A stretch of DNA of 64,000 nucleotides from Thainema sp. (GTDB lineage Bacteria > Cyanobacteriota > Cyanobacteriia > Phormidesmidales > Phormidesmidaceae). Positions 42,022 to 62,800 of this stretch are shown here, piece by piece. The notes under the pieces were generated by a model. The model searched no databases, was not told the origin of the DNA, and was given only the letters and a program-made list of their open reading frames with translations. Every line of letters begins with the position of its first letter. The stretch's first letter is position 1. The DNA is taken from NCBI GenBank assembly GCA_052168235.1, contig JBQLZK010000028.1:1-64000 (forward strand). The letters run 5' to 3'. Position numbers and translations under genes: made by a program.

Positions 42022-42397
42022 CAAATCGAGCAAAAGTCGCTGTAGCAAAATCTTGACATCATCCTGACATTGATGCGATCGCAATTAGATAGAAAAGCGA
42101 CTGAATAGAAGAGCAGATTGCTCACTTTTGGGCCAGTTAAATGTCACGCATTGATTCACAAAAAGCAGTTCAGATTTTATTTTTTCTTAAGGCAGTTGGT
42201 ACTCTTTAGAGCTTTAGTTGGCGATTAGAATATTCGTGTCTTGTCAATGCTCGCTTTAAGACGATTAACAGCTCAGATTCGGAGATATTGGGGTGATCCA
42301 ATCTTGGCTTTAGCCTGCGTTTCAAATGTAAATAATTGCTTAAGTCTGACTGCTCCTTACATCCCTGCTCCCTTCGTTGCTTCATGAGGAAATGTTT

Positions 42398-42940
42398 ATG
42401 ATTGCCACCTCTAGCACCACGCCCACAGACGAAACCAACGCCAAGACCTCACTGAATAAACCCGATCAACCTGCTGCCGATCGTCGTTTTAAGCGGCTCG
42501 ATATGACGATGAAGCGGCATCAACACCGAGGGGATGCCCTGATTGAAGTTTTGCATGCGGCACAGGATGCCTTTGGTTATCTCGAAGAAGATGTGCTGGC
42601 CTATATCGCTCAGGGCCTGAAGCTGCCGCTGAGCCGGGTGTACGGCGTTGCCACGTTTTACCATCTGTTTTCGCTGAAGCCCAGCGGTGCCCATAGCTGC
42701 GTCGTCTGTATGGGCACCGCCTGCTATGTCAAAGGCAGCGGCAAGGTGATGGATGCACTGCAGGCTGAGCTGGGTGTCGAGGCTGGAGAAACTACGCCGG
42801 ATGGTCAGGTTTCGCTGATGGCGGCCCGCTGCTTGGGAGCCTGTGGTATTGCTCCGGCGGCTGTATTTGATGGCACAGTGGCGGGCAAGTTGGATGCCAA
42901 TACTGCCTTGGCGAAGGTTAAAGCCTGGGAGCAGGAATAA
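42398..42940 (+). CDS. hoxE: Bidirectional hydrogenase diaphorase subunit E
   Basis: VYGVATFYH, CMGTACYVKG, RCLGACG. Confidence 0.95.
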   Translation: MIATSSTTPTDETNAKTSLNKPDQPAADRRFKRLDMTMKRHQHRGDALIEVLHAAQDAFGYLEEDVLAYIAQGLKLPLSRVYGVATFYHLFSLKPSGAHSCVVCMGTACYVKGSGKVMDALQAELGVEAGETTPDGQVSLMAARCLGACGIAPAAVFDGTVAGKLDANTALAKVKAWEQE

Positions 42941-43067
42941 CGAGTCAAGAAAACGAGTCAAGACGATCTGCATCAACGCGAACGGCTGACGTTATGACAC
43001 CACCCCACCTATCGGCATGATTCTCGACATGATGAGTCTGCAACGGTGAACAAGGAGAATTTTGATT

Positions 43068-44807: not shown

Positions 44808-44887
44808 GATACGCACGACATAACCTTTCGCGTTCGATATATCCAGCGTTGTTTCAACGCCTATCGCTAAAACGGGATTCTTTAATC

Positions 44888-47563
44888 ATGAAGGTCAACA
44901 CTATCGACGATCTCAATGCCCTGGTTGCTCAAGTCAAAGCGGCGCAGGCGCAATATGCCAACTTTACTCAGAACCAAGTTGATCAAATCTTCAAGCGGGC
45001 GGCGCTCAAAGCGAATGATGCTCGTATCGCTCTGGCCAAACTGGCTGTCGCTGAAACTCAGATGGGCATCGTGGAGGACAAGGTGATCAAGAATCACTTT
45101 GCGTCTGAGTACATCTACAACAAATACAAGAACGAGAAAACTTGTGGAGCCATCGAAACGGATAACACCTACGGCTTCCAGAAAATTGCTGAACCAATTG
45201 GGGTTCTAGCAGGAATCATCCCGGTGACGAATCCCACCTCGACGACGATTTTCAAGGCATTACTGGCGCTGAAAACCCGCAACGCAATTATTTTTTCGCC
45301 CCATCCCCGCGCCAAGGGCTGTACGGCGGAAGCTGCTCGCATCGTGCTCGAAGCGGCAGTAGAAGCGGGTGCGCCGGAGCATATTATCGCCTGGATGGAT
45401 GATCCGACGATTGAGCTGTCCCAGGCGCTGATGCAGCATCCGGAAGTGAAGCTGATTCTGGCGACGGGCGGCCCCGGCATGGTGAAAGCAGCTTATTCTT
45501 CAGGCCACCCGGCTTTAGGCGTCGGGGCGGGCAACACGCCAGCGGTGATTGACGAAACGGCGCACCTGAAGATGGCGGTGTCGTCGATTCTGCTCAGCAA
45601 AACCTTTGACCACGGCATGATCTGCGCCTCGGAGCAGTCCATCGTCGTCGTCGATGAAATTTACGATGAAGTGAAACAGGAACTGTGCGATCGCGGCGCT
45701 TATATCTTGACTACCGATGAAAAAGAAAAGGTAGGCCAGCAGATTATCGTCAACGGACGGTTAAATGCCGGAATTGTGGGTCAATCGGTATCTGGTATTG
45801 CAGATTTAGCGGGAATTACGATTCCGGATCACGTCAAGGTGCTGGTGGGCGAAGTCGATGCAATTGACCACGACGAACCCTTTGCCTACGAAAAGCTATC
45901 GCCGATCCTGGCCATGTACCGAGCCAAGTCCTTTGATGATGCGGTCAGCAAGGCGCAAAAGCTGGTGGATTTGGGCGGTCGGGGCCACACGTCGGTGCTC
46001 TATACCGCGCCCGCTAATCAGCAGCGGATTGAGAAGTTTGAGCAGGCGGTGCAGACGGCACGGGTGCTAATCAATACGCCGTCTTCGCAAGGAGCAATTG
46101 GCGACCTGTATAACTTCCGACTCGATCCCTCGCTCACCCTGGGCTGCGGCACCTGGGGCGGCAACTCCGTCAGCGAAAACGTGGGGCCAAAGCACCTGCT
46201 CAATATCAAGAGCGTGTCCGAGCGGCGAGAAAACATGCTGTGGTTCCGCATTCCGCCCAAGATTTACTTCAAGTACGGCTGCTTACCCGTGGCACTGCGG
46301 GATCTGGCGGGCAAACAGCGGGCGCTGATCGTGACCGACAAACCGCTCTATGAGCTAGGCATGACTCGCACCGTGGAAGCCGTGCTGGACGACATCGGCA
46401 TCAAATACGACATCTTCTACGATGTCGAACCCGATCCCTCGCTCGATACCGTGAATCGGGGACTGGCGCTGATGAATCGCTTCAATCCCGATGTGATTAT
46501 TGCTTTTGGCGGCGGGTCGCCGATGGATGCGGCCAAGGTGATGTGGCTGATGTATGAACAGCCGGACATCGAATTTGAAGGGATGGCCATGCGGTTTATG
46601 GATATCCGCAAGCGGGTGTATGAGTTCCCGACGACGCTGGGCGCAAAAGCTACGCTGGTCTGCATTCCCACTACCTCTGGCACGGGTTCCGAGGTGACGC
46701 CGTTTGCCGTTGTGACCGACAACCGGACGGGGATCAAGTATCCCATTGCCGACTATGCGCTGACGCCCCACATGGCGATCGTTGATCCCCAGTTGGTGAT
46801 GAACATGCCCAAGTCGCTGACGGCCTTTGGCGGCATTGATGCGCTGACTCATGCGCTGGAAGCCTACGTGTCGGTCTGTGCCTCGGAATTCACGAATGGG
46901 CAAGCCCTGGAAGCGATTCGCCTGCTGTTCAAATATCTGCCCAGTGCCTACAAAAACGGAGCCAACGATCCGAAGGCGCGGGAGAAGGTTCACTATGCCG
47001 CGACGATGGCGGGGATGGCCTTTGCCAACGGCTTCCTAGGTATCTGCCACTCGCTGGCCCACAAGCTGGGTTCCACGTTCCACATTCCCCACGGCTTGGC
47101 CAATGCGCTGATGATTTCGCACGTCATCCGCTACAACGCCACCGATGCGCCGTTTAAGCAGGCCATCTTCCCGCAGTACAAGTATCCCAATGCCAAGTGG
47201 CGCTACGCCCGGATTGCCGATTACCTGCAGCTCGGCGGAGCCGACGAGGATGAAAAAGTGGATCGCTTAATCGCCGCCATTGAGCAGCTTAAGGCTGCTG
47301 TTGACATTCCCACCGCCATCCGCGATGTGATTCCGGCTAAGACAGCAGACTTTTACCAGATGGTGCAGGATATGGCCGAGCAAGCCTTTGACGACCAATG
47401 CACGGGCACCAATCCCCGCTATCCGCTGATTGAAGACCTGAAGCAGTTATATATTCAAGCCTTTGAAGGAGAACGCCCCGTGGCCGTGATCGATCTGAAT
47501 CAGGTGCTGCAGTTGAGCAATGGTCACGCCTCAGACTGGACGCATGAGGAGGTCAAGATTTAG
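44888..47563 (+). CDS. adhE: Bifunctional acetaldehyde-CoA/alcohol dehydrogenase
   Basis: ICASEQ, EKLSP, LGCGTWGGNS linker, GGGSPMD, GICHSLAHKLG. Confidence 0.95.
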   Translation: MKVNTIDDLNALVAQVKAAQAQYANFTQNQVDQIFKRAALKANDARIALAKLAVAETQMGIVEDKVIKNHFASEYIYNKYKNEKTCGAIETDNTYGFQKIAEPIGVLAGIIPVTNPTSTTIFKALLALKTRNAIIFSPHPRAKGCTAEAARIVLEAAVEAGAPEHIIAWMDDPTIELSQALMQHPEVKLILATGGPGMVKAAYSSGHPALGVGAGNTPAVIDETAHLKMAVSSILLSKTFDHGMICASEQSIVVVDEIYDEVKQELCDRGAYILTTDEKEKVGQQIIVNGRLNAGIVGQSVSGIADLAGITIPDHVKVLVGEVDAIDHDEPFAYEKLSPILAMYRAKSFDDAVSKAQKLVDLGGRGHTSVLYTAPANQQRIEKFEQAVQTARVLINTPSSQGAIGDLYNFRLDPSLTLGCGTWGGNSVSENVGPKHLLNIKSVSERRENMLWFRIPPKIYFKYGCLPVALRDLAGKQRALIVTDKPLYELGMTRTVEAVLDDIGIKYDIFYDVEPDPSLDTVNRGLALMNRFNPDVIIAFGGGSPMDAAKVMWLMYEQPDIEFEGMAMRFMDIRKRVYEFPTTLGAKATLVCIPTTSGTGSEVTPFAVVTDNRTGIKYPIADYALTPHMAIVDPQLVMNMPKSLTAFGGIDALTHALEAYVSVCASEFTNGQALEAIRLLFKYLPSAYKNGANDPKAREKVHYAATMAGMAFANGFLGICHSLAHKLGSTFHIPHGLANALMISHVIRYNATDAPFKQAIFPQYKYPNAKWRYARIADYLQLGGADEDEKVDRLIAAIEQLKAAVDIPTAIRDVIPAKTADFYQMVQDMAEQAFDDQCTGTNPRYPLIEDLKQLYIQAFEGERPVAVIDLNQVLQLSNGHASDWTHEEVKI

Positions 47564-47755: not shown

Positions 47756-48775
47756 ATGATGTATAGACATGTCATCATTACCCAGCACGGTGGCTCCGAG
47801 GTTTTGCAGCTAGTTGAAGATGAGTTGCCGGAACCCGCCGCTGATCAAGTCCGGGTGCGAGTGTTGGCGACCGGAGCGGCCTTCACGGATGTGCTGATTC
47901 GGGAGGGACTGTATCCCGGTGTGCCCAAACCGCCATTTTCACCCGGATATGAAGTGGTTGGCCTGGTGGATCAGGTTGGGGCGAACGTAACCAATGTGCA
48001 GCCAGGGCAGCGGGTTGCGGCTCTCACTGTCACGGGTGGCTACAGCGAGTTTATCTGCTTGCCAGCCGAGGAACTGGTGCCCGTCCCCGACGGCGTAGAC
48101 TCTGCCGAAGTAGCCTGTTTAGTGTTGCAATATGTGACGGCGTATCAACTCCTGCATCGGGTGGCGCACGTGCAGCCAGGGCAGCGGCTGCTGATTCACG
48201 GGGCGGCGGGCGGTGTCGGGACGGCGCTACTTGAACTCGGCCAGTCGTTGAACCTAGAGATGTACGGCACGGCGTCGGCTGGCAAGCACGACTTGGTGCG
48301 GCAACTGGGCGGCACTCCCATTGACTATCGCCACGAGGACTTTTGCGATCGCATTCGTGAACTGACGACCGACGGGGTTGATGTCGTGTTCGACGGCATT
48401 GGCGGCACGCATTTACTGGCCTCACACCGAGCCTTGGCACCTAAAGGGCAACTCGTTTGCTACGGCTTTTCAGCAGCATTGAAATCCACCCAGCGCTGGC
48501 GCTCACTGGCGACCACGTTTGCGCTGATTGCAGGGCTGAAGCTTTGGCCCGATGGTCGCCAGCTCTCGTTTTACAGCATCACGGGCATGAAACAGGCGCA
48601 TCCTGACTGGTTCAAAGCCGATCTGACCACTTTGATGGATGAGCTGAAAGCGGGCACCATCCGCCCGATTATTGCCCAGCGCTTGCCGCTACAGGAGGCA
48701 CCCGCCGCCCATCGGCTGCTGGAGCAGTCTGCCGTTCAGGGACAACTGGTGCTGATGTGCGATCGCAATCTCTAA
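47756..48775 (+). CDS. Medium-chain dehydrogenase/reductase (quinone oxidoreductase-like)
   Basis: PGYEVVG, HGAAGGVG, DVVFDGIGG; no Zn cysteine cluster. Confidence 0.85.
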   Translation: MMYRHVIITQHGGSEVLQLVEDELPEPAADQVRVRVLATGAAFTDVLIREGLYPGVPKPPFSPGYEVVGLVDQVGANVTNVQPGQRVAALTVTGGYSEFICLPAEELVPVPDGVDSAEVACLVLQYVTAYQLLHRVAHVQPGQRLLIHGAAGGVGTALLELGQSLNLEMYGTASAGKHDLVRQLGGTPIDYRHEDFCDRIRELTTDGVDVVFDGIGGTHLLASHRALAPKGQLVCYGFSAALKSTQRWRSLATTFALIAGLKLWPDGRQLSFYSITGMKQAHPDWFKADLTTLMDELKAGTIRPIIAQRLPLQEAPAAHRLLEQSAVQGQLVLMCDRNL

Positions 48776-48797: not shown

Positions 48798-49514
48798 ATG
48801 GCAGTTAAAACACTCAAAATTGACGATCAGGATATTGCGATCGCAGAAGGCGCGTCTATCCTGGAGGCCGCCAAAGAAGCGGGCGTACGGATTCCAACTC
48901 TGTGCTTTTTGGAAGGGGTCAGCTCCGTGGGAGCCTGCCGTCTCTGCCTGGTGGAAATCGAAGGCAGCAATAAACTTTTGCCCGCCTGCGTCACCGAAGT
49001 GGCCGAAGGCATGGTGGTGCATACCCAAACGCCCAAGCTGCAAGAGTATCGCCGCATGGCCGTGGAGCTGATTTTTGCCGAGGGCAATCACGTCTGCTCA
49101 ATCTGCGTGGCCAACGGCAACTGCGAACTGCAAGATGTCGCCATCGAAGTCGGCATGGATCACTCCCGCTTTGCCTATCGCTTCCCGGATCGGGGCGTGG
49201 ACTTGTCTCACGACCTGTTTGGCATTGATCACAACCGCTGCATCCTCTGCACCCGCTGCGTCCGCGTCTGCGACGAGATTGAGGGGGCACACGTTTGGGA
49301 TGTGGCCAATCGGGGCGCGGCTTGCTATATCGTCTCCGGTCTGAATCAGCCCTGGGGCGATGTCAGCGCCTGCACCTCCTGCGGCAAATGCGTCGATGCC
49401 TGCCCCACCGGATCGATTTTCCACAAGGGCGAAACCACAGGCGAAAAAATCCGCGATCGCGACAAGTTCGCTTTCCTATCTACCGCACGGGAGAAACACG
49501 AATGGACAAGATAA
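48798..49514 (+). CDS. hoxU: Bidirectional hydrogenase subunit U
   Basis: IPTLC, GACRLC, HVCSIC, CILCTRC, CTSCGKC. Confidence 0.95.
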   Translation: MAVKTLKIDDQDIAIAEGASILEAAKEAGVRIPTLCFLEGVSSVGACRLCLVEIEGSNKLLPACVTEVAEGMVVHTQTPKLQEYRRMAVELIFAEGNHVCSICVANGNCELQDVAIEVGMDHSRFAYRFPDRGVDLSHDLFGIDHNRCILCTRCVRVCDEIEGAHVWDVANRGAACYIVSGLNQPWGDVSACTSCGKCVDACPTGSIFHKGETTGEKIRDRDKFAFLSTAREKHEWTR

Positions 49515-50053
49515 AGTTTGCCACGGTTTGGCTAGCGGGCTGTTCCGGTTGCCACATGTCATTTCTCGATCTGGATGAGTTTCTGATTGAGCTGGCGGGT
49601 TTAGTAGACGTGGTCTACAGTCCGGTCGCCTCGGATCTGAAAGACTATCCCGACGGCGTGGATGTTTGCCTGGTGGAAGGCGCAGTAGCCAACGAAGAAA
49701 ACCTGGAGCTGATTTACCAAGTGCGCCGCCGCACCAAACTGCTGATTTCCTTTGGTGACTGCGCGGTGACGGCTAACGTGCCCGCCATGCGGAACCTGCT
49801 GCGGGAGGGAGCCAAGCCCGTCCTGGAGCGTGGCTATTTGGAACTGGCGGACGAAAATCCCCATTTACCCCACGCACCAGGCATCGTGCCGGAACTGCTA
49901 GATCGCGTTTTGCCAGTGCATGAAGTGGTGCCCATTGATATTTTCATGCCCGGTTGTCCACCCTCAGCAGATCGGATTCGCGCCACGTTGGAGCCGCTGC
50001 TCCAGGGGCAGGCACCGGAAATGGTAGGCCGCGACATGATCAAATTTGGTTAA
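49502..50053 (+). CDS. hoxY: Bidirectional hydrogenase small subunit
   Basis: LAGCSGCHMS, GDCA, PGCPP. Confidence 0.95.
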   Translation: MDKIKFATVWLAGCSGCHMSFLDLDEFLIELAGLVDVVYSPVASDLKDYPDGVDVCLVEGAVANEENLELIYQVRRRTKLLISFGDCAVTANVPAMRNLLREGAKPVLERGYLELADENPHLPHAPGIVPELLDRVLPVHEVVPIDIFMPGCPPSADRIRATLEPLLQGQAPEMVGRDMIKFG

Positions 50054-50415: not shown

Positions 50416-51843
50416 ATGTCTAAAACGGTTGTGATTGATCCCGTCACTCGGATTGAGGGTCACGCCAAGATCTCCGTCTTTCTCAACGATGCCGGAGAGG
50501 TCGATAAAGCACAGTTTCACGTGGTGGAATATCGGGGATTCGAGAAGTTTTGCGAAGGCCGCCCCTTCACCGAAATGGCCGGAATTACGGCGCGCATCTG
50601 CGGCATTTGTCCCGTAAGCCACCTGATTTGCGCTGCCAAAACGGGCGATAAAATCCTGGCGGTGAAAGTGCCAGTGGCGGCAGACAAACTGCGGCGCTTG
50701 ATGAACTTGGCCCAAATTACCCAATCCCATGCGCTCTCGTTTTTCCACTTGAGCAGTCCCGATTTTCTACTCGGCTGGGATAGCGATCCGGCCAAGCGCA
50801 ATGTGTTTGGACTAATCGCCGCTGATCCAGAGCTGGCTAGAGCGGGCATTCGCCTGCGTCAGTTCGGTCAAAAAATTATCGAAATTCTGGGTGGGCGCAA
50901 GATTCACGCCGCTTGGACTGTCCCCGGTGGAGTGCGATCGCCGCTGAGTGAAGAGGGTCGCGCTTGGATTGTCGATCGGCTACCGGAATCCCTCGATACC
51001 GTCCGTAAAGCCCTGGATATCTTCAAGGGGCTAATCAACGGCCCGATGCAGGAAGAAGTGAACGTGTTTGGCGAATTCCCGTCGCTATTCATGAGTCTGG
51101 TTGGTAAAGATGGCGAATGGGAGCATTACGACGGCTATCTGCGCTTTACCGACAGCAACGGCAATATCGTTGCCGATCACCTGAGCGAGGACGACTACCA
51201 GGACTTCCTGGGTGAAGCGGTGGAAGACTGGTCATACCTGAAATTCCCCTATTACAAGCCCCTGGGCTATCCCGGCGGCATCTATCGGGTGGGGCCACTG
51301 GCGCGGTTGAACAACTGTAGCCACATTGGCACGCCCAGCGCCAATGCTGAACTGCAAGCCTTCCGGGAATATGCGGGCGGCGTGCCTACCTCGTCGTTCC
51401 TCTACCACTATGCGCGGCTAATTGAAATTCTGGCCTGTCTCGAAAAAATTCAGGTGCTGATGGACGATCCGGATATGATGTCCAGCCGAGTCCGCTCCGA
51501 AGCGGGCGTGAACTCCCTGGTCGGCATCGGCGTCAGCGAAGCACCGCGCGGCACCCTGTTCCATCACTATCAGGTGGATGAAAATGGCCTAATCAAAAAG
51601 GTCAACCTGATTATTGCCACGGGGCACAACAATCTGGCCATGAACAAAACCGTCACCCAGATTGCCCAGCACTACATCCACGGCGAAGACATTCCCGAAG
51701 GCTTCCTGAACCGAGTCGAAGCAGGCATCCGCTGTTATGATCCCTGCCTCTCCTGCTCCACCCATGCGGTGGGCCAAATGCCGCTGCACATTCAGCTGGT
51801 GAAGCCGGACGGTTCCGTCGCGAAAGAGGTGTATCGGGATTAA
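50416..51843 (+). CDS. hoxH: Bidirectional [NiFe] hydrogenase large subunit
   Basis: [30 protein letters not shown] plus cleavable extension. Confidence 0.97.
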
Positions 51844-51940: not shown

Positions 51941-52213
51941 ATGGCCAAAGAAAACTTATTTCTCTGTATGGGATCGGCCTGCCATCAACTGGGTGTCTAC
52001 GACGTGCTGCCCAAACTGCAAGCTCTAATCCAAAAGCACGGTCTTGAACAGGAGATTGAGCTGAAGGGATCATTCTGCCTGGAAACCTGTAGCCAAGGCA
52101 TCGTCATGAAGTTCCACGACACCTGCTTTTCCAACATCAGCCCTCAAAATGTCGAATCCAAATTCGAAGCCGAAATTCTGCCGAAAATTCAGTCAGCTCT
52201 GTCGGCAGTTTAG
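51941..52213 (+). CDS. Thioredoxin-like [2Fe-2S] ferredoxin (HfsA-like)
   Basis: CMGSACH..G and ELKGSFCLETC motifs; GGAGG RBS. Confidence 0.8.
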   Translation: MAKENLFLCMGSACHQLGVYDVLPKLQALIQKHGLEQEIELKGSFCLETCSQGIVMKFHDTCFSNISPQNVESKFEAEILPKIQSALSAV

Positions 52214-52218
52214 GTCAA

Positions 52219-52250
52219 GCGTAGGGGCGAATGGCCATTCGCCCCTACGC
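52219..52250. repeat. Perfect 32-bp GTAG REP palindrome
   Basis: gcgtaggggcgaatgg|ccattcgcccctacgc. Confidence 0.85.
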
Positions 52251-52290
52251 AATTTAACGCTCCCAGTCCCCATTCTCAGCTTGTTGCACC

Positions 52291-52851
52291 ATGCTGATCC
52301 CTACCGTGACTGCTAACGTACCCAATCACCTCTGGCAAATCCTCTGGGAATACGACCCCAATGGTCTAATCGTGGTCGATGCCGATTTGTATATCAAGCT
52401 GGTGAATCCGGCCTTTTGTGAGATGTTTGGCATCAAGCCGGACGATGCCATCGGCCAGCCAGCGGAAACGATTTTAGACGATGTCAGCGACTTTAAGCGG
52501 GTGTGGGAAACGGGCACGGTGATTCGCAATCAGCTCAAGCAGTATACGCAGCCGCCGCTGTTGCTCAACCAGGTGATTTTCTCCATTGAGGATGAGGGCA
52601 TCATTGCCTGCATCATGACCGACTTCAGCCATCAGCTAGCGCAAAAGCAGGCGCTCACCAAGCTGAAGCACGAGACGATTAAGCAGGTGAACGAAGTGGT
52701 CGATCACCAAATGAAAGTGGTGCAGGAAATCGCCGGACTGCTGGGCGAAACGACTGCCGAAACCAAAGTCAGCCTGCTGAAAATTATTCAGATGCTACAG
52801 CAGGAAGCGAGCGATTCTTTGCCGTTGTTGAATCCCGATGAGCAGCCGTGA
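52291..52851 (+). CDS. PAS-domain protein resembling the C-terminus of sensory [FeFe] hydrogenase HfsB/HydS
   Basis: PNGLIVVD..VNPAF..F PAS start; QMKVVQEIAGLLGETTAETKVSL tail. Confidence 0.8.
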   Translation: MLIPTVTANVPNHLWQILWEYDPNGLIVVDADLYIKLVNPAFCEMFGIKPDDAIGQPAETILDDVSDFKRVWETGTVIRNQLKQYTQPPLLLNQVIFSIEDEGIIACIMTDFSHQLAQKQALTKLKHETIKQVNEVVDHQMKVVQEIAGLLGETTAETKVSLLKIIQMLQQEASDSLPLLNPDEQP

Positions 52852-54091
52852 CATGGAACAGATTTTGTCTTCAACGCGGACTGATGTGGATGCCACCGTT
52901 CGTTCTTCGCCTCTGATTGCTGTGATGGAAGCCGACAATTTTCTCGATATTGCAGTCAGCAGTTTGAATAAGCAGGGCGAGGAATTGTGCGGTGACAAGG
53001 TGAAGTATCTGAAAACCGATGATCAGGTGATTATCGTCCTGTCAGACGGTTTGGGCAGCGGCGTGAAGGCAAATATTTTGGCCACGCTCACCACTGAAAT
53101 TCTGATCACGATGCTGAATGCGGATGTGCCGCTGGAAGAAGTCCTGAAGACAGTAATTGCGACGCTGCCGATCTGCCAGGTGCGGAAGATTGCCTACTCC
53201 ACGTTCACGATTTTGCGGATCAATCCGGCCAATAACCACTTCCGCGTGATTAATTTTGACAATCCGGCTCCGTTCTATTTCCACCAGGGTAAGGCCGTCA
53301 AGCTAGAGCTGAAAACGCAGGAAATCCTCGGTCGCAAAATTCAAATTGGTGAAGGCTATCTGCAACGGGGCGATTTTCTGGGCGCGATTAGTGACGGGGT
53401 ACTCTATGCCGGGATGGGCATTACGCTGAATTTTGGCTGGGGCTGGGAGAATATCGCGAGTCACATTGAGCAGGTGTTGGTGAATCGCGCTCACACGGCT
53501 CGCACCATTATTCGCGAGGTGATTCGGCATACCCATGAGCTGTATCAAGGCGCAACCGGGGATGATGCCACGTTTGTTGGGGTGTATGTTCGCCAACGCA
53601 ATCCGCTGCTGATTTTTACGGGGCCACCGCTGGATGCGGAGCAGGATGAAGCCTACGTCAGCCGCTTTCTGGAATTTGAAGGGCGCAAGGTGATTTGCGG
53701 CGGTACGACTGGCAACATCGTGGCAAATTTCCTGGGCGAAATGATTGACATGGATCTGTCCACCATGCGGCGGGAACTGCCACCCATTGGCATGTTGAGC
53801 TGCGTAGATCTGGTCACGGAAGGGATTTTGACGCTCTCGAAGGCTACCGAGTATATCCGCAACTGTCACTGCGATGTCAGCCAGCTCCAGTTTGACAATA
53901 ACGGTGCTTACTTGCTCAGCAAAGAGATTTTGCAGGCGGATTCGATTCACTTTCTGGTTGGCCAAAGCATCAACGAGTTCTATCAAAATCCGCTGCTGCC
54001 CAAGAACATCTCAATTCGGCGCAGTCTCGTTGAAACATTGGTAGACGTGCTGAGGGCGGGGCAGAAGGAGGTGATGGTGGAGTATTGCTAG
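52838..54091 (+). CDS. SpoIIE/PP2C-type Ser/Thr phosphatase (HfsC-like); start may be 52925
   Basis: LNKQGEELCGD, SDGLGSGVKANILATLT, SDGV, GDDAT, ICGGTT, DLVTEGILTL. Confidence 0.85.
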   Translation: MSSRDMEQILSSTRTDVDATVRSSPLIAVMEADNFLDIAVSSLNKQGEELCGDKVKYLKTDDQVIIVLSDGLGSGVKANILATLTTEILITMLNADVPLEEVLKTVIATLPICQVRKIAYSTFTILRINPANNHFRVINFDNPAPFYFHQGKAVKLELKTQEILGRKIQIGEGYLQRGDFLGAISDGVLYAGMGITLNFGWGWENIASHIEQVLVNRAHTARTIIREVIRHTHELYQGATGDDATFVGVYVRQRNPLLIFTGPPLDAEQDEAYVSRFLEFEGRKVICGGTTGNIVANFLGEMIDMDLSTMRRELPPIGMLSCVDLVTEGILTLSKATEYIRNCHCDVSQLQFDNNGAYLLSKEILQADSIHFLVGQSINEFYQNPLLPKNISIRRSLVETLVDVLRAGQKEVMVEYC

Positions 54092-54240
54092 GGGGGAGTA
54101 GGGGAGAGAGGGTGGATGGGTGGATGGGTGGATGGGTGGATGAGTGGATGGGTAAGGAGTAGGGAGTAGGGAGTAGGTGAGAAAGGGGGTGGGAGTGGGG
54201 ATGGGTGTTGGTTGCGATGTAGGGAGTAAGGGGGGGAAGG
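54092..54240. repeat. G-rich short tandem repeats (GGATGGGT)n and (GGGAGTA)n
   Basis: Directly visible; reverse complement of the 2361-2433 unit. Confidence 0.85.
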
Positions 54241-54242
54241 AG

Positions 54243-54722
54243 ATGGTGGGGATGTTGGTGGTTGGGTATGGCAATACGTTGCGGGGGGATGATGCGGTGG
54301 GGTATGAGATTGCGGAGGTGGTGCAGGATTGGGGGTTGGCTGGTGTGGAGGCGGTAGCTTGCCATCAGTTGACGCCGGAATTGGCAGATGCGATCGCAAC
54401 TTTCCAATCCATTATTTTCGTAGATGCTGCGATCGCATCTGTCACCACCTCATCGGATATCACGCTGGAGCGGGTGGAACCGAGTGAGCAAAATCCGTTT
54501 ACGACCCATGCGTCTACGCCAGCGGCGTTGCTGACCTTAGCGAAGTGGCTCTATGACGCGACCCCTGTTGCCTATCAGCTGACGATTCCAGCGATTGAGT
54601 TTGAGTTTACGGAAAGCCTGTCGCCTGTGACGGCTGAGGGCAAACGGCTGGCGCTGATGCAGTTACGCCGCATGTGTGAAGACACGCCATCCTCTGCAAT
54701 GGGAGGCTACGCGAATGCATGA
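54243..54722 (+). CDS. hoxW: Hydrogenase maturation protease
   Basis: VGYGNTLRGDDAVG, HQLTPEL, FVDA, TH..TP. Confidence 0.9.
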   Translation: MVGMLVVGYGNTLRGDDAVGYEIAEVVQDWGLAGVEAVACHQLTPELADAIATFQSIIFVDAAIASVTTSSDITLERVEPSEQNPFTTHASTPAALLTLAKWLYDATPVAYQLTIPAIEFEFTESLSPVTAEGKRLALMQLRRMCEDTPSSAMGGYANA

Positions 54723-55056
54723 AGTGAGCATCATGGAAAGCACGCTGGAACTGGCGGAGCAGTCGGCCCAGCAGCAGGGCGCAACGCGGATTCACCAGTT
54801 GACGCTGCGGGTGGGTGAGCTGTCGGGAGTGATTCCGGAGGCGCTGCGGTTTGCCTTTGATGTGGTGGCCCAGGGCACGATGGCGGCAGCGGCCAAGTTA
54901 ACCATTGAATCGGTGCCTGCGGTGTGTCATTGCCCCGTTTGCGATCGCGACTTTCAGCCACCGGACATCATCTATGAATGTCCCCACTGCCACGGGCTAG
55001 CGACGGAACTGCGGCAGGGCAAAGAACTAGAACTTGTATCGTTGGAGGTGTCTTAA
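54715..55056 (+). CDS. hypA: Hydrogenase nickel metallochaperone
   Basis: MHE start, CPVC/CPHC, GKELEL. Confidence 0.95.
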
Positions 55057-55057
55057 G

Positions 55058-56005
55058 ATGTGTCAGAACTGCGGCTGTAGCCAAGTTGGCGCGGTGACGA
55101 TTGACGGCATAGAAATGCCCGCGCATTCACATGAGGATACGCATGGTCACGCCCACGATCACATGCATGATCATCCTCATATCCATTCACCCTCCCACTC
55201 TCCTACCCTCCCACCCGATCACCCATCTACCCATCCACCCATCCACCCTCATACTCACCCACCCGATCACAACCATTCCCACACGCTAACAGTGCATCAG
55301 GGAATTCTGAGCAAAAATGATCGTTTAGCTGCCCAAAATCGCGAATCTTTTAAAGCGGCGGGTGTGTTGGTACTCAACGTTCTCTCCTCCCCAGGAGCCG
55401 GAAAAACGGCGCTTATTGAACGCTTAGCTCAAGATTTAGCCGCGCAAACGCCTCAAGATGGGCCGCAGTCTCTCAAAATGGGCGTTGTTGTGGGCGATTT
55501 AGCGACGGACAATGATGCTCAGCGGTTACGGCAGGCGGGTGCGCCAGCGGTGCAGATCACGACGGGTAATGCCTGTCATCTAGAAGCGGAAATGGTAGCG
55601 CAGTCGCTAACCCGATTAGACCAGTGGCCGGAGTTCGATCTGCTGGTAATTGAAAATGTGGGTAATCTGGTGTGCCCGACCAGCTATGACCTGGGCGAAA
55701 CGCTGCGGGTGGTGTTGCTGTCTACGACCGAGGGAGAAGATAAGCCGCTGAAGTATCCGGCCACGTTTAAGAGTGCGGATGTGGTGTTGTTGACGAAGGT
55801 GGATATTGCCGAAGCCGTGGGTTGCGATCGCACTTTAGCTCTCTCAAATATTCAACGAGTTGCACCACAGGCCAAAGTGTTTGAAGTCTCAGCCCGAACG
55901 GGGGCAGGGTTGTCGGATTGGTATGAGTATTTGGTGGGTCAGCTTGTGCTGCTGGAAAACAAACCAGTAGGGTGCTGTATAGCCCTTCGGGCATGGCTGC
56001 GCTAA
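55058..56005 (+). CDS. hypB: Hydrogenase nickel incorporation GTPase
   Basis: MCQNCGC, His-rich segment, [27 protein letters not shown]. Confidence 0.95.
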
Positions 56006-56290: not shown

Positions 56291-58969
56291 ATGAAGGGTG
56301 TGGTTATGGTTGCAGTACCTTATCCCAAATCGAATATCCCTCAGCGTTTGAGTCTCCATGTGGAGGGGATTGTGCAGGGTGTGGGCTTTCGGCCTTTTGT
56401 GTATACGCTGGCGCGGTCGGTGGGGGTGACAGGTTGGGTGCAGAATACGGCGCAGGGTGTGTTTATTGAAATTGAAGGAACGGCGGCGCAACTGCAATCG
56501 TTTCAGCAGCGGTTGGAGGCCGAGAAACCGGAACATGCGTTGCTTCAGCGAGTGGAGGTAACGCAGTTAGAGAGTATGGGCGATCAGGACTTTCGTATCC
56601 TCCCGTCTTCTCAAACAGCGGCGAAAACGGCTTTAATTCTGCCCGATCTGGCCACCTGTCCTACCTGTCTCGCAGAAATGTGGGAGCCGACGAATCGCCG
56701 CTATCGCTATCCGTTTATCAACTGCACCCACTGCGGCCCCCGGTTCAGCATTGTGCGATCGCTACCCTATGATCGACCGCATACGACAATGGCAGGATTT
56801 CCGCTTTGTCCTGACTGTCGGCGAGAGTATGAAGACCCCTGCGATCGCAGATTTCACGCGCAGCCCAATGCTTGCTCAACCTGCGGCCCGCATGTGGAAC
56901 TGTGGGATCGAGAAGGTAACTGTTTAGAGCAATCTGATCCAGCGCTTCGGCAGGCAGCAGTGGCACTTGAACAGGGGCAAGTCCTGGCGCTGAAGGGACT
57001 GGGCGGATTTCATCTGATGGTGGATGCCACTAACGAAGCGGCGGTGCAAACGCTGCGGCAGCGGAAGCATCGACCGGATAAGCCGTTAGCGGTGATATTT
57101 CCGTCGTTGGCGATGCTGCGCGATTACTGTGAGGTATCCGATGCCGCCGTGCAGGTGATGCAATCGGCGGCGGCTCCGATTGTGCTGTTGCCGTTGCGCA
57201 CGGATGGCGTAATGCTTGCGCCTGGGGTAGCTCCGGGCAATCCCTCTATCGGCGCGATGTTGCCCTATACGCCGCTGCATCATTTGCTGCTGGCGGAGGT
57301 GAATCGCCCCATTGTGGCGACGAGCGGTAATTTATCCGGTGAACCAATTTGTATTGATGAGCGGGACGCTCTGGAGCGCCTGGGCCAGATTGCCGATAGC
57401 TTTCTAGTGCACAATCGCCCGATTGCCCGTCCGGTGGACGATTCCATTGTGCAGATGGTGCAGGATCAGCCCGTGACGCTGCGACGAGCCAGGGGCTATG
57501 CGCCATTTCCGGTAATGCCGCCTGTGCTCTCATCCCCAGCTCTTCTTCCTCAGGGAGAAGGGAGCAATTCTCCGGAAGTCCCTCTCCCACGGGGAGAGGG
57601 ATTTAGGGTGAGGGCCACAAACGCCGAACGACAACAAGATGTAGTTATGCTGGACGTTCCGCTTCCTGACGATACGAAGACTTTGGGTTCTAGTTCGGCG
57701 TTGAGATCCCCCCTAGCCCCCCTTAAAAAGGGGGGAATTGGTTCAAAGTTCCCCCTTTTTAAGGGGGATTTAGGGGGATCGGTTTGGGGTGTTGAAAAAC
57801 AATTGCAAGATGCCGTTATTTTGTCCGTTGGTAGTCACCTGAAAAATACCGTCGCCCTACATTTACATGGTCAAACGTTGATTAGTCAGCATTTAGGCGA
57901 TTTAGATACGCCGCAAGGGTGCGATCGCTTTAAAGAAACAATTCAGCATCTCTGTGGTTTGTACGATTTGCAGCCCACGGATGTAGATGCGATCGCACAT
58001 GACGCTCACCCGGATTACTACTCGACCCAGTTTGCTAAGGCGTTGCTCAGCCAAACCGATAAGTCCCCGCAACTCATACCTGTCCAGCATCACTACGCTC
58101 ATGTCCTGTCCTGCATGGTCGATAACCAGTGGCAGCCGCCTGTGTTGGGCGTTGCCTGGGACGGCACGGGCTATGGGCTAGACGGCACAATTTGGGGAGG
58201 TGAGCTGCTGTGGATTCCGTCCGCTCACGTGCCCGCACCGGGATTTGAGCGGGTGGGGCACGTAAAGCCGTTTCCGCTGCCGGGGAGTGAACGGGCGACG
58301 GTGGAGCCGCGCCGATCGGCGATTGGATTACTCTACAGTTGCCTGGGCGATCGCGCGTTTGACTATACGCATCTGCCCTGCTTCCAGACGTTTACCGCTC
58401 AAGAGCAGACGGTGCTGCACCAAATGCTCCAGCGGGGCTTAAATGCGCCGCTCACGTCCAGCATGGGACGGCTGTTTGATGCCGTTGCCTCGCTGGTAGG
58501 ACTCCGCCAGCAGGCCAGTTTTGAGGGACAGGCGGCGATGGCGCTGGAATTTGCGATCGCACATCCCACAGACCAACTCACAGATCAGATCTATCCCTAT
58601 GCGCTGCATCACTTGCCGGATTCCTCGCTTCAGTTTGATCCAAAGCCAATGGTGCTGGCGATTTTGGATGACTTGGCGAATCAAGAGTTAACGGCGGACA
58701 TTGCGATAACATTTCACAATACTTTAATTGCCGCATTAGTGGAAATCATTCAGCATTTATGTAAGCGGTATCCAGAACTACAGAAAGTCGCTCTTACGGG
58801 TGGATGTTTTCAAAATCGCTATTTGTTGAACCGCGCCATTCAGCAGCTCCAGGCCATAAATCTATCGGTTGGTTGGCATCAAACCATTCCCACCAATGAC
58901 GGCGGCATTTCGGCTGGGCAAACAATGGCAGCACTGATTGAGTTAAACAATCAGTTAGTTGTCAAATAG
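56291..58969 (+). CDS. hypF: Carbamoyltransferase with an in-frame repeat-derived insertion
   Basis: GIVQGVGFRP, CTHCGPR, KGLGGFH, RRARGY, QHHYAH, DGTGYG, NDGGISAGQ. Confidence 0.95.
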   Translation: MKGVVMVAVPYPKSNIPQRLSLHVEGIVQGVGFRPFVYTLARSVGVTGWVQNTAQGVFIEIEGTAAQLQSFQQRLEAEKPEHALLQRVEVTQLESMGDQDFRILPSSQTAAKTALILPDLATCPTCLAEMWEPTNRRYRYPFINCTHCGPRFSIVRSLPYDRPHTTMAGFPLCPDCRREYEDPCDRRFHAQPNACSTCGPHVELWDREGNCLEQSDPALRQAAVALEQGQVLALKGLGGFHLMVDATNEAAVQTLRQRKHRPDKPLAVIFPSLAMLRDYCEVSDAAVQVMQSAAAPIVLLPLRTDGVMLAPGVAPGNPSIGAMLPYTPLHHLLLAEVNRPIVATSGNLSGEPICIDERDALERLGQIADSFLVHNRPIARPVDDSIVQMVQDQPVTLRRARGYAPFPVMPPVLSSPALLPQGEGSNSPEVPLPRGEGFRVRATNAERQQDVVMLDVPLPDDTKTLGSSSALRSPLAPLKKGGIGSKFPLFKGDLGGSVWGVEKQLQDAVILSVGSHLKNTVALHLHGQTLISQHLGDLDTPQGCDRFKETIQHLCGLYDLQPTDVDAIAHDAHPDYYSTQFAKALLSQTDKSPQLIPVQHHYAHVLSCMVDNQWQPPVLGVAWDGTGYGLDGTIWGGELLWIPSAHVPAPGFERVGHVKPFPLPGSERATVEPRRSAIGLLYSCLGDRAFDYTHLPCFQTFTAQEQTVLHQMLQRGLNAPLTSSMGRLFDAVASLVGLRQQASFEGQAAMALEFAIAHPTDQLTDQIYPYALHHLPDSSLQFDPKPMVLAILDDLANQELTADIAITFHNTLIAALVEIIQHLCKRYPELQKVALTGGCFQNRYLLNRAIQQLQAINLSVGWHQTIPTNDGGISAGQTMAALIELNNQLVVK
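57526..57615. repeat. Dispersed palindromic element in frame within hypF
   Basis: gctctcatccccagctcttctt...ccctctcccacggggagagggatttagggtgagggc. Confidence 0.75.
57705..57780. repeat. Second dispersed palindromic element within hypF
   Basis: gatcccccctagccccccttaaaaagggggg...ccccctttttaagggggatttagggggatc. Confidence 0.8.
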
Positions 58970-59075: not shown

Positions 59076-59339
59076 ATGTGTCTTTCAGTACCCGGAAAGC
59101 TTGTTAGTATTACTGATCAAATCAGCAGTCAAAATCAGGACTCTGACGACTCATCGCTGTGGCGCATGGGCAAGGTTAGCTTTAGCGGTGTGCTGCGAGA
59201 GGTCAGTCTGGCCTACGTTCCAGAGGCTAAGGTGGGGGACTATGTGCTGGTGCATGTTGGCTTTGCCCTCAGCGTCATTGATGAAACAGAAGCTGCCGAA
59301 ACATTAAGTTACTTGGATCAGCTCAATCCGACTAATTAA
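59076..59339 (+). CDS. hypC: Hydrogenase assembly chaperone
   Basis: MCLSVPG, VGDYVLVHVGFA. Confidence 0.95.
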   Translation: MCLSVPGKLVSITDQISSQNQDSDDSSLWRMGKVSFSGVLREVSLAYVPEAKVGDYVLVHVGFALSVIDETEAAETLSYLDQLNPTN

Positions 59340-59864
59340 TCAGAACTATAGTGGAAGTATGGCTGAGTTGGTTGATCTTTTTATTGATACGAGGTTAGTT
59401 GAAGTATTAAGGGTCAATTAACTGTTTGCTGTTGTCGTTATTGATTTTTGCCAGGATTTTTGCCAGCTTCTGTCAATCATTTCTTAATTATTATTCTTGG
59501 CAGATGAGCCATTTAATGTATTGGATGGAACGATATAAAGCCCAATCCCGATCTAAGATTTTGTTGCAAGAAGACTGAATCAAGGAAAAATTTCAGACTC
59601 AATCCTGACTTGATCAAGACTGATTCAGTGTATTCACTAGCCCGATTTACTGGCCCGATTCATAGCCGACTTATAGATTGATAGTTTCGCAGGTCATTCA
59701 AAGATTTTTCGCAATTTATTTGTCGCTTGCACCACTGCGATATGGCAGAGTTTGCCAAAGAGTTTACCAACTCGTTTGCAGCGACAACCACCAGATGTAG
59801 CCGGGTGAGTCTAACTCATCCTGTGCATCCATTCATCGTCAAGCTTTCTCGCGAGGAAAGAGCC

Positions 59865-62800
59865 ATGCTATCTCAAACCTTTGCCACGCTGGATGGGAAC
59901 GAAGCCGTTGCCCGCGTTGCCTATCGCCTCAGTGAAGTCATCGCCATCTACCCGATCACCCCCGCTTCACCCATGGGCGAATGGGCCGATGCTTGGGCAT
60001 CCGCAGACCAACCCAACCTATGGGGATCGACTCCATCAGTGGTTGAGATGCAGAGCGAAGCGGGTGCAGCCGGAGCCGTTCACGGGGCACTTCAGGCGGG
60101 CACGCTGACCACGACGTTTACCGCTTCCCAGGGGTTGCTGTTGATGATCCCCAACCTCTACAAAATTGCGGGAGAGTTAACCCCAGCCGTGATTCACATC
60201 GCCGCTCGTTCCCTGGCCGCGCAGGGATTGTCCATCTTTGGCGACCACAGTGACGTAATGGCCGTGCGGTCTACGGGCTGTGCGCTGCTCTGCTCTGCGT
60301 CGGTGCAAGAAGCTCAGGATTTAGCTGCGATCGCAACTCGGGCCACGCTGGAATCGCGCATTCCCTTCCTGCATTTCTTTGATGGTTTCCGCACCTCCCA
60401 CGAAATTCAGAAGGTGTCGCTGCTGCCGGATGAGATCCTGCGGGAGTTCATTTCGGATGGCTATGTGCTAGCGCATCGGGCACGGGCGCTCACGCCGGAT
60501 CGCCCCGTGATTCGCGGCACGGCTCAGAACCCGGATGTTTACTTCCAGGCGCGGGAAAGCGTCAACACCTACTACAACGCTGCCAGCGAAATCGTGCAGC
60601 AGGCAATGGATGACTTTGCCAAGCTGACCGGACGGCAGTATCGTCTGTACGACTATCACGGTGCGCCCGATGCCGAGCGAGTGGTAGTGCTGATGGGTTC
60701 CGGCTGCGAAACGGCCCATGAAGCGGTGGATGCGCTGGTGGCTCAGGGTGAGAAAGTGGGCGTTCTGAAAGTGCGGCTCTATCGTCCATTTGATTTGCAA
60801 AGCTTTGTCGATGCCCTACCCAGCACTGTGAAGGCTTTGGCCGTCTTGGATCGCACCAAGGAACCGGGCAGCACGGGCGAACCGCTCTATTTGGATGTGG
60901 TGGGAGCGTTAGCTGAAGCGCAGCGGTCAGCGGTGAAAGTCGTGGGCGGTCGCTATGGCTTGTCCTCCAAGGAATTCACGCCTGCAATGGTCAAGGCTGT
61001 CTTTGATAATTTGGCGGCTGACACTCCCAAGAATCACTTCACGCTCGGCATCAACGACGATGTTACCCACACCTCGCTTGCCGTTGATCCCAGCTTCTCG
61101 ACAGAGTCAGATCAAGTGGTGCGGGCCATCTTCTACGGCCTCGGTTCGGACGGTACCGTTGGAGCCAACAAGAACTCAATCAAGATCATCGGTGAAGAAA
61201 CCGATAACTACGCCCAGGGCTACTTCGTCTATGACTCGAAGAAGTCCGGCTCCGTGACCGTGTCGCACCTGCGCTTTGGCCCAGAGCTGATTCGCTCCAC
61301 CTACCTGGTGTCTAGCGCCAACTTTGTCGCCTGTCACCAGTGGCAGTTCCTGGAAAAATTTGACCTGCTCTCAGCAGCGAATCCCCAGGGCACATTCCTG
61401 CTTAACAGTCCCTACAGCCCGGAAGAAACCTGGCAGCGACTGCCAGAGTTCCAGCGAGAAGCGATTATCCGCAAACAGCTCCGCGTCTACGTGATCAACG
61501 CCTCCCAAGTGGCCAAAGACGCAGGCATGGGTCAGCGAATCAACACCGTCATGCAGGTGTGCTTTTTTGCGATCGCAGGTGTCCTCCCTAGAGACGAAGC
61601 GATTGCTCAAATTAAGCAGTCCATCCGCAAGACCTACGGCAAGAAGGGCGAAGCGGTGGTGCAGATGAACCTGAATGCCGTCGATCAAACCCTGGATAAC
61701 CTGTACGAAGTCGATTACCAGAGCTACGCAGCGATTCCCGCTGCCGACGGTGCGGCTCCCGGGTCCTGGGTGCCCGACACTGCACCCGCCTTTGTGCGAG
61801 ACGTGCTCGGTAAGATGATGGCGCGTCAGGGCGACGAGATTCCGGTCAGCGCCCTGCCCGTAGATGGCACCTATCCCTGCGGTACGGCCAAGTGGGAAAA
61901 ACGCAATATCGCCGATGAAATTCCGGTTTGGGACCCTGATGTCTGCGTCCAGTGCGGCAAGTGTGTCATGGTTTGTCCCCACGCGGTCATTCGGGCCAAA
62001 GTCTATGAACCCGCTGCGCTAGACGGCGCACCCGCCACGTTCAAGAGCACCGATGCCCGCGATCGCGATTGGTCAGGCGAGAAATTCACCATTCAAGTCG
62101 CTGCCGAAGACTGTACGGGCTGCACCCTCTGCGTCGATGTTTGCCCCGCTAAGAACAAGGCGGAACCGCGCAAGAAAGCGCTAAATATGGAGCCGCAGCT
62201 ACCCTTGCGAGAGCAAGAGCGGGAAAACTGGGATTTCTTCCTGAATCTCCCCAATCCTGACCGTCAAGACTTGAATCTGCATAAAATTGCTCACCAGCAA
62301 ATGCAGGAGCCGCTGTTTGAATTCTCTGGTGCCTGTGCGGGCTGTGGCGAAACGCCGTACATCAAACTGGCGACCCAGCTCTTTGGCGATCGCATGTTGG
62401 TGGCCAATGCCACGGGCTGCTCCTCTATCTACGGCGGCAACCTGCCCACCACGCCCTGGAGCTACAACGCCGAAGGACGGGGGCCAGCCTGGTCGAACTC
62501 CCTGTTTGAAGATAATGCCGAGTTTGGCATGGGCTTCCGCGTTGCGGTAGACAAGCAGACGGAATATGCCCGCGAGCTAGTGCAGCAGCTTGCCCTGACC
62601 GATACTGGCCCGATTCCCCGCGATTTGGCAACGGCCATCCTGGCTACCAACCAAACGGACGAAGCCGAAATCTTTGAACAGCGGCAGCGGGTCGCCACGC
62701 TGAAGCAACAGATTGAACAAGCACTGGCCGCTACCACCGATGCCAGTCAGCGCCAGAAACTGATGGCTCTGAAAGCGGTGGCCGACTACCTGGTCAAGAA

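Follow-up and report, generated by a model that had tools for sequence, protein, structure and literature searches.

The window analysed here, the first 64,000 nucleotides of contig JBQLZK010000028.1 from the cyanobacterium Thainema sp., carries a fermentative and hydrogenase gene cluster as one long plus-strand run from hoxE (42377) to the gene for pyruvate:ferredoxin/flavodoxin oxidoreductase (PFOR; 63542). Between hoxH and hoxW, which encode the [NiFe] large subunit and its C-terminal endopeptidase, lies a cassette of three genes: a small thioredoxin-like [2Fe-2S] ferredoxin (Fdx90), a PAS domain protein (PAS186), and a PP2C phosphatase of the SpoIIE/RsbU class (Table 1). The host is an oxygenic phototroph, with six genes of the photosystem II reaction-centre type in its genome. 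An earlier note on this DNA had described the trio as a Clostridial hfs-type sensing module grafted into a cyanobacterial Hox operon. Our analysis confirms the three open reading frames (ORFs) and their coordinates, and the motifs that the note quoted, SDGLGSGVKANIL, CGGTT, and DLVTEG, are present in the phosphatase translation. The comparisons below identify the cassette as a hydrogenase-less variant of a known, mechanistically unsolved signalling system, and as one that is widespread in cyanobacteria rather than a one-off graft.

Fdx90 scores 20.0 bits (E = 6.4e-4) against the Pfam family 2Fe-2S_thioredx (PF01257), whose cut-off is 24.8 bits; relatives of Fdx90 score above this cut-off, at 39.6 bits (locus L057) and 44.9 bits (L044). 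Cysteines C9, C14, C46, and C50 are invariant in all 22 aligned sequences. PAS186 matches PAS families only (PAS_9, PAS_4, and PAS_8, with E values from 1.7e-8 to 2e-6) and consists of a PAS domain followed by a conserved C-terminal helix of about 60 residues. In an alignment of 24 sequences, the helix motif QEIAGLLGETTAETK is nearly invariant and is common to the sensory hydrogenase HydS; residues M141, I147, A148, L151, G152, E153, A156, T158, K159, and L162 are identical in all 24, including five HydS proteins. PAS186 has two cysteines, neither of them conserved, and it lacks 4Fe-4S domains, an H-cluster domain, and the PF04060 cysteine cluster.

The phosphatase matches SpoIIE (PF07228) over residues 61 to 249 with an E value of 2.2e-19 and 70.6 bits (cut-off, 25). 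Its phosphatase domain spans residues ~36 to 250 and is followed by an unnamed alpha/beta C-terminal domain at residues 255 to 417, with no N-terminal regulatory domain of its own. Because its relatives are 386 to 395 residues long and align from residue 30 to 36, the protein most likely starts at M30 (near 52925), which would remove the overlap with the PAS gene. Among 18 aligned sequences, the metal-binding aspartates D70 and D243, together with G71, are invariant, and the metal-binding aspartates D53, D186, and D242 are kept in at least 90%. A model of the full-length protein has a mean predicted local distance difference test score (pLDDT) of 85, and its N-terminal part adopts a SpoIIE/RsbU/RsbX-type fold, with Foldseek matches to SpoIIE, RsbX, and Rv1364c at E values of about 1e-14 to 1e-11, including 2.2e-14 for PDB entries 3pu9 and 5mqh. 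The catalytic fold and aspartates are thus those of the partner-switching phosphatases (PDB 5mqh, 5ucg, 3w40, and 3ke6), from which the window protein differs in lacking an N-terminal regulatory domain and in carrying the distinctive C-terminal alpha/beta domain. No gene for a STAS substrate or an anti-sigma kinase was found in the window cluster or beside the cassette in its relatives, the regions to which this search was confined.

A library-wide search with the phosphatase returned 362 representative clusters at E values of 1e-30 or below, and nearly all of the 150 matches listed aligned end to end over about 390 residues. Named relatives include Bellilinea (57% identity), Acidobacteriota, Geotoga, Bacteroidota, and Bacillota. 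We fetched 80 named loci and typed the neighbours of the phosphatase gene by Pfam (76 proteins) and BLAST. The counts that follow refer to the 64 loci outside the cyanobacteria and the Melainabacteria-like relatives (see below) in which the ORF caller found the phosphatase. At 47 of these 64 loci, the ORF adjacent upstream, about 570 residues long where complete, is similar to PAS186 and to the hydrogenase domain of HydS alike; it is HydS/HfsB. Pfam analysis of nine such proteins found a double [4Fe-4S] domain (Fer4x2), Fe_hyd_lg_C, and PF04060 in all of them and a PAS domain in eight. A small ferredoxin lies within five genes at 29 of the 47 loci and adhE at 17; an APH/RIO-like kinase occurs at 10 and Rex at 7, and in 25 cases a second [FeFe] hydrogenase follows directly downstream.

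Residues 14 to 172 of PAS186 align to the last 150 to 170 residues of HydS at 29 to 38% identity (BLASTP E values of 1e-15 to 1e-27), and Fdx90 is 29 to 60% identical to the ferredoxins found two genes before the phosphatase in anaerobes. The trio recurs with its order unchanged in dozens of genomes, far beyond what chance would produce. Fdx90, PAS186, and the phosphatase are true homologues of the ferredoxin, the C-terminal output part of HydS, and the phosphatase of group C "sensory" [FeFe] hydrogenase systems, in agreement with the hfs-type order and homology that the earlier note had proposed. In the parts of the literature that describe such systems, this cassette takes the form HfsA-HfsB-HfsC(-HfsD) in Thermoanaerobacterium and rex-adhE-kinase-ferredoxin-HydS-PP2C-HydA2 in Ruminococcus albus 7 (PMC5707799, PMC11837493, PMC6776011); HfsD is a HydA2-like hydrogenase according to passages of a 2025 paper (PMC11837493). 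The window shares with it the four-cysteine ferredoxin, the PAS and helix module, a phosphatase with the same C-terminal domain, the gene order, a hydrogenase setting, and adhE as a frequent neighbour. Fdx90 is likened to HfsA of Thermoanaerobacterium saccharolyticum by its position in the cassette.

Other features differ. Unlike HydS, the window PAS protein lacks the ferredoxin-like 4Fe-4S domains, the H-cluster domain, and the PF04060 cysteines, and unlike the R. albus cluster, the window cassette has neither an APH/RIO-like kinase nor a Rex gene beside it. As the earlier note had anticipated, the [FeFe] hydrogenase domain PF02906 has no match in the 99.99%-complete genome, in a search that did find it in control genomes of Thermotoga and Bacteroides, and no protein reaches the HydF family cut-off. 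The partner enzyme is instead a [NiFe] Hox hydrogenase in an oxygenic phototroph.

Cassettes without a hydrogenase domain also occur outside the cyanobacteria. At eight loci the ORF upstream of the phosphatase contains only the PAS part; in one of these (L084), a HydS gene is broken into two ORFs, leaving seven true cases with PAS proteins of 166 to 208 residues and no hydrogenase domain. Their hosts are Bellilinea, KSB3, Moduliflexus, Pirellulales, Anaerolineales, a further metagenome-assembled genome (MAG), and a Thermotogota MAG, in the last of which adhE lies directly upstream of the cassette. NuoE/NuoF-like genes, resembling HoxEF or HydBC, adjoin six of the seven, and the layout of the window, with a ferredoxin, a PAS protein, and a phosphatase of about 388 residues beside a NuoE/NuoF-type operon, recurs in L040, L067, L076, L087, L089, and L095. 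These cassettes share the three-gene architecture of the cyanobacterial ones (KSB3/Moduliflexota, Bellilinea and other Chloroflexota, Pirellulales, and the Thermotogota MAG), with identities of 52 to 57% for the phosphatase, 36 to 50% for the PAS protein, and 44 to 60% for the ferredoxin. They usually lie next to a hox-like diaphorase or an [FeFe] HydABC operon of the NuoE/NuoF type, and their hosts are strict or facultative anaerobes, whereas the cyanobacterial cassette follows hoxH and precedes hoxW in oxygenic hosts. A literature search aimed at the cyanobacterial setting found no paper on the hydrogenase-less cassettes of anaerobes.

Two of these loci have a particular arrangement. In L087 (a Pirellulales MAG) and L095 (an Anaerolineales MAG), genes resembling hoxE and hoxF come after the PAS-only cassette, joined in L087 by a hoxU-like gene encoding 260 residues. 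These operons could be Hox-type [NiFe] hydrogenases or diaphorase-only operons outside the cyanobacteria; their phosphatases form a tree clade of their own, apart from the cyanobacterial one.

To place the cyanobacterial phosphatases, we built a quick IQ-TREE phylogeny of 129 sequences, rooted at the midpoint, with support values from the Shimodaira-Hasegawa-like approximate likelihood ratio test (SH-aLRT) only. All 47 cyanobacterial phosphatases form one clade (SH-aLRT, 99), nested in a larger clade (97) with KSB3/Moduliflexus, Bellilinea and other Chloroflexota, an Acidobacteriales MAG, and L089. The nearest relatives, at 52 to 57% identity and from Moduliflexota/KSB3, Chloroflexota, and a Chthonomonadaceae MAG, belong to cassettes that already lack the hydrogenase domain. 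Phosphatases of Bacillota, Bacteroidota, and Treponema lie elsewhere in the tree, the Bacillota copies at 36 to 44% identity and in another clade. Eighteen small-genome relatives from the same phylum and another class, which we infer to be Melainabacteria-like, have a complete HydS, are about 34% identical, and sit on a separate long branch (100). On this midpoint-rooted tree, the cyanobacterial cassette has a single origin that lies outside the Clostridia, and it does not share its inheritance with the Melainabacteria-like copies. A Clostridial donor, as the earlier note had proposed, is rejected by the same tree, and the cassette most likely arrived in cyanobacteria already without its hydrogenase domain.

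The distribution was examined across 401 species genomes, sampled evenly from the class to which the window belongs. HoxH was found in 132 species, adhE in 161, and the phosphatase in 32 species from 23 of 169 genera; within the 32, genome G438 has a fragment only and the gene in G555 is split by contig ends. All 32 are among the 132 HoxH-bearing species and none among the 269 without HoxH, so that the cassette is a widespread hox accessory and not special to this operon, as the word graft had implied. By genus, it occurs in 23 of the 79 that bear Hox. In 28 of the 32 species, the phosphatase gene shares contig and strand with hoxH and follows it at a distance of no more than 4.3 kb; in the other four, the two genes are on different contigs, two of the contigs being shorter than 3 kb. 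The order hoxH-ferredoxin-PAS-phosphatase is found at 9 of 11 named loci with long flanks (among them Planktothrix, Limnospira, Geitlerinema, Dapis, Okeania, Floridaenema, and an Elainellaceae MAG), with hoxW at most three genes further on in five. The cyanobacterial phosphatases are 62 to 84% identical to the window protein across 12 families, and their frames, apart from the G438 fragment, are open or have only read-through stops upstream of an ORF of about 388 residues.

In family f14 the cassette is split, with the ferredoxin and PAS genes at one site (after hoxH in G296) and the phosphatase and hoxW at another. All four genomes of this family yielded a PAS gene, three of them with the ferredoxin gene next to it. 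We considered that the phosphatase-hoxW loci of this family reflect loss of the rest of the cassette; this was rejected, since the ferredoxin and PAS genes are located elsewhere in three of the genomes and the PAS gene alone lies within the locus of the fourth.

Two further genomes differ from the window in ways that we record separately. In G438, a 110-residue piece of the phosphatase (G438:C64:1331-1660; residues 150 to 259, 65% identity) lies 191 bp downstream of hoxH; the adhE of this genome is the closest relative of the window adhE (88%) and stands in the same hox cluster. The cassette of G438 thus seems to have decayed. In the same-genus genome G465, the hox cluster is collinear but contains neither the cassette nor the adhE/alcohol dehydrogenase pair, hoxF running directly to hoxU and hoxH directly to hoxW. 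Identity between the window and this cluster (L139, G465:C137) is uneven, at 96% for HoxU, 89% for HoxY, and 96% for HoxH and at 81% for HoxE and 72% for HoxF, suggesting that the hoxEF end beside the adhE insert was exchanged by recombination or transfer among cyanobacteria.

The linkage to adhE that the earlier note had pointed out holds both for co-occurrence and for adjacency. Of the 32 cassette genomes, 30 carry adhE, compared with 32 of the 100 that have Hox and no cassette and 99 of the 269 without Hox; by genus, the figures are 22 of 23 with the cassette and 18 of 56 with Hox alone. A Fisher test of adhE against the cassette by species gives 2.7e-10, a value that overstates the case because the genomes are related. 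In Spirulina subsalsa, G571, and G505, the gene immediately before the cassette is adhE.

We propose, with a probability of roughly 0.6, that the three genes are the output half of a group C (HydS/HfsB-type) [FeFe] hydrogenase system without the hydrogen-binding domain, built into the Hox operon as a redox relay that divides electrons between H2 and ethanol. The cassette would function as a redox-responsive phospho-switch tied to the hydrogenase and to ethanol fermentation. Having no H-cluster, it cannot sense H2 itself. Of its parts, only the [2Fe-2S] ferredoxin is redox-active; conservation in PAS186 is highest in the output helix, and the phosphatase carries no regulatory domain itself. The simplest reading is a relay in which the ferredoxin signals to the PAS protein and the PAS protein to the phosphatase. 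During dark, anoxic fermentation, the Fdx90 cluster would be poised by the electron pool common to Hox, PFOR, and AdhE, namely, NAD(P)H and reduced ferredoxin, with the iron-sulfur chain of HoxEFU as a possible direct route to it. PAS186 would read the redox state of Fdx90, and its C-terminal helix (QEIAGLLGETTAETK) would switch the phosphatase. Dephosphorylation of a putative Ser/Thr phosphoprotein would then shift the split of electrons between H2 (Hox) and ethanol (AdhE), in a manner analogous to what genetics suggests for hfsB in Thermoanaerobacterium. There, deletion of hfsA/hfsB raised the ethanol yield and the adhE transcript, as passages of PMC5707799 report, and in R. albus the cluster of adhE, HydS, the phosphatase, and HydA2 was 111-fold down-regulated in co-culture, according to sections of PMC6776011. 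The concept of hydrogenase-linked phosphorylation control of hydrogen metabolism is shared with the regulatory HoxBC-HoxJ-HoxA system of Cupriavidus/Ralstonia (described in part of PMC5707799), which differs in using a histidine kinase and a response regulator where the window has a Ser/Thr phosphatase. The proteins of the two are unrelated, and passages of the same paper state that the HoxBC-HoxJ-HoxA and hfs systems have no significant homology.

Several points weigh against this proposal. Fdx90 by itself falls under its Pfam cut-off (20.0 versus 24.8 bits), and PAS186 has no conserved Cys or His suggestive of a cofactor, so the route by which the ferredoxin signal would reach PAS186 is conjecture. 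The co-occurrence counts for adhE come from related genomes, which overstates their independence; adhE was not found with our query in two cassette genomes (G158 and G437), and its presence in more than a third of the Hox-negative species means that a genome can have adhE without the cassette. In cyanobacteria, the cassette is not accompanied by any kinase gene. Two candidate partners were rejected: the APH/RIO-like kinase of Clostridial and Ruminococcus-type loci was not found in the window's own genome with that query, and the Hanks-type Ser/Thr kinase with TPR repeats (Pkinase-TPR) at 37062-38996 (+), 3.4 kb upstream of hoxE, has a homologue at none of the 11 long-flank cyanobacterial loci. 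We also know of no proof of HydS signalling itself and of no experiment on any hydrogenase-less cassette.

The main alternative is that the cassette regulates Hox itself, at the level of activity, assembly, maturation, or transcription, and that its association with adhE merely reflects a shared dark, anoxic lifestyle. The position of the cassette between hoxH and the gene for the HoxH-specific protease in most genomes favours this explanation, as do its restriction to HoxH-bearing genomes, the hydrogenase diaphorase genes beside six of the seven PAS-only cassettes of anaerobes, and the split in family f14, where hoxW keeps the phosphatase as its neighbour and, in G296, hoxH keeps the ferredoxin and PAS genes. 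It accounts less well for the adhE enrichment in cassette genomes, by species and by genus alike, for adhE as a repeated immediate neighbour of the cassette in three phyla, and for the sister species that lacks adhE and the cassette together. We consider it unlikely as a replacement for the electron-dividing relay, with which a role in Hox regulation is in any case compatible.

A bolder extension of the relay, which we regard as doubtful, is that Hox took over sensing from the lost H-cluster domain. Fdx90 would plug into the HoxEFU chain, and H2 pressure and the NAD(P)H/ferredoxin poise would be read via the PAS protein and the phosphatase; the invariant threonines of GETTAETK in the PAS helix or the CGGTT loop of the phosphatase could be phosphosites. 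If this were true, oxygenic cyanobacteria would have an H2- and redox-responsive Ser/Thr phospho-switch that selects H2 or ethanol as the night-time electron sink.

A further alternative places the primary signal in the C-terminal domain of the phosphatase, which would bind a phosphorylated glycolytic or fermentative intermediate and set the activity, leaving the ferredoxin and PAS protein secondary. Modelled alone, the 163 C-terminal residues give a confident three-layer alpha/beta domain (pLDDT, 91), with an invariant C-G-G-T at a strand-to-helix turn and an invariant T-E-G close by. Among the weak matches, the best are phosphate-binding folds: methylglyoxal synthase by Foldseek (E = 1.3e-2, probability 0.96) and, by PDB profile, a SIS-domain phosphoheptose isomerase (E = 0.004), in which vCGGtt aligns to the phosphate-binding loop VCGNGSS. 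We treat the binding of phosphate or a metabolite as a lead only. The top structural Z scores (VIA), from 9.9 to 8.0, belong to Rossmann-like domains of NuoG (9.9), FhcB, and formate dehydrogenases, none of them decisive, and no meaningful Pfam match was obtained in any of 26 members (searches to E values of 10 gave noise). In the ESM Atlas, the domain matches unnamed clusters only (151 to 156 residues; scores of 0.91 to 0.92). Metabolite sensing would also leave the retention of the ferredoxin and PAS genes unexplained, and we consider it quite improbable. We had also entertained a STAS-like phospho-acceptor for this domain and dropped the idea because no STAS structure is among the Foldseek and VIA matches listed. 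A complex prediction for PAS186 and the phosphatase scored 0.03 against a mark of 0.32 and counts neither way.

Finally, patchy distribution among Hox-bearing genera, the G438 fragment, and the same-genus species without the cassette would fit a drifting relic or hitch-hiker of horizontal transfer without present function, or a generic RsbU/PAS pair beside hox by accident, but this is very improbable given frames that are otherwise intact and 62 to 84% identical, invariant catalytic and cluster-binding residues, a gene order constant across phyla, the keeping of all three genes where the cluster is split, and best relatives that are hydrogenase-linked rather than generic RsbU proteins, a link that the earlier note had already drawn.

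The signal output of "sensory" [FeFe] hydrogenases is an open question, and its genetics come so far only from thermophilic anaerobes that are hard to handle. The cassette described here shows that the output half of such a system exists alone, tied to a [NiFe] enzyme in about one-quarter of the sampled Hox-bearing cyanobacterial species and accompanied by adhE. It would offer a simpler system for dissecting a ferredoxin-PAS-phosphatase relay, and it suggests that the making of H2 and ethanol by cyanobacteria fermenting in the dark is under a control not recognised before. Among its carriers are genera of interest for applications (Limnospira/Arthrospira, Planktothrix, and Spirulina). Consistent with the expectation of the earlier note, we found no description of the cassette in cyanobacteria in the full-text literature, a coverage that excludes subscription journals; the word "phosphatase" does not occur in the main texts of two surveys of cyanobacterial hydrogenase loci (PMC5186783 and PMC3858816).

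Table 1. Genes of the hydrogenase and fermentation cluster in the window and the basis of their assignment
Gene or product	Position	Strand	Basis
hoxE, diaphorase subunit, thioredoxin-like 2Fe-2S	42377..42940	+	Pfam PF01257, E 1.3e-45
hoxF, NuoF-like FMN/NAD subunit	43062..44717	+	Pfam Complex1_51K, NADH_4Fe-4S
adhE, bifunctional acetaldehyde-CoA/alcohol dehydrogenase	44849..47563	+	NCBIfam NF010378, 1410 bits (cut-off 951)
Zn-dependent alcohol dehydrogenase family gene (Zn-ADH)	47756..48775	+	Pfam ADH_N, ADH_zinc_N
hoxU	48798..49514	+	Pfam Fer2_4, NADH-G_4Fe-4S_3
hoxY, small subunit	49295..50053	+	Pfam Oxidored_q6; ORF lengths of relatives
hoxH, [NiFe] large subunit	50416..51843	+	Pfam NiFeSe_Hases; 96% identity to same-genus HoxH
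Fdx90, small thioredoxin-like [2Fe-2S] ferredoxin, 90 residues, in hfsA position	51941..52213	+	Four invariant Cys; homology
PAS186, PAS domain and conserved signalling helix, 186 residues	52291..52851	+	Pfam PAS_9; BLASTP to HydS C terminus
HfsC-type PP2C phosphatase (SpoIIE/RsbU class), 417 residues as called	52838..54091	+	Pfam PF07228; fold matches
hoxW, HoxH C-terminal endopeptidase	54177..54722	+	NCBIfam TIGR00072, E 5.6e-18
hypA	54676..55056	+	Pfam HypA, E 9.4e-34
hypB	55034..56005	+	Pfam cobW/HypB
hypF	56291..58969	+	Pfam HypF domains
hypC	59076..59339	+	Pfam HupF_HypC
Pyruvate:ferredoxin/flavodoxin oxidoreductase (nifJ/PFOR)	59727..63542	+	Pfam POR_N, POR, EKR, TPP_enzyme_C

Within this cluster, adhE and the Zn-ADH gene form an insert that separates hoxF from hoxU. 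The real start of hoxY is probably near 49505, since its relatives are about 182 residues long. A scan for promoters and terminators from 41.4 to 59.8 kb returned fewer sites than shuffled sequences did (7 versus 12 and 13 versus 18) and does not inform the operon structure.

Two palindromes were seen near the cassette genes. A perfect GC-rich one of 32 nucleotides (16+16) at 52219-52250 occupies much of the 77-nucleotide gap between the ferredoxin and PAS genes, and a HIP1-type palindrome, GCGATCGC, lies near 51864-51871, just 3' of hoxH. Both are candidates for RNA hairpins or for repeat elements of the cyanobacterial kind. Upstream, the hox cluster is flanked by genes for a type-2 NADH dehydrogenase (NDH-2; 35104-36489, minus strand) and a GH9 cellulase-family protein (39007-41415, minus strand), the latter also found upstream of hox in the same-genus genome. 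Further away, at 26615-28630 on the minus strand, is a gene for a MASE1-PAS-GGDEF diguanylate cyclase, which is unrelated to PAS186.

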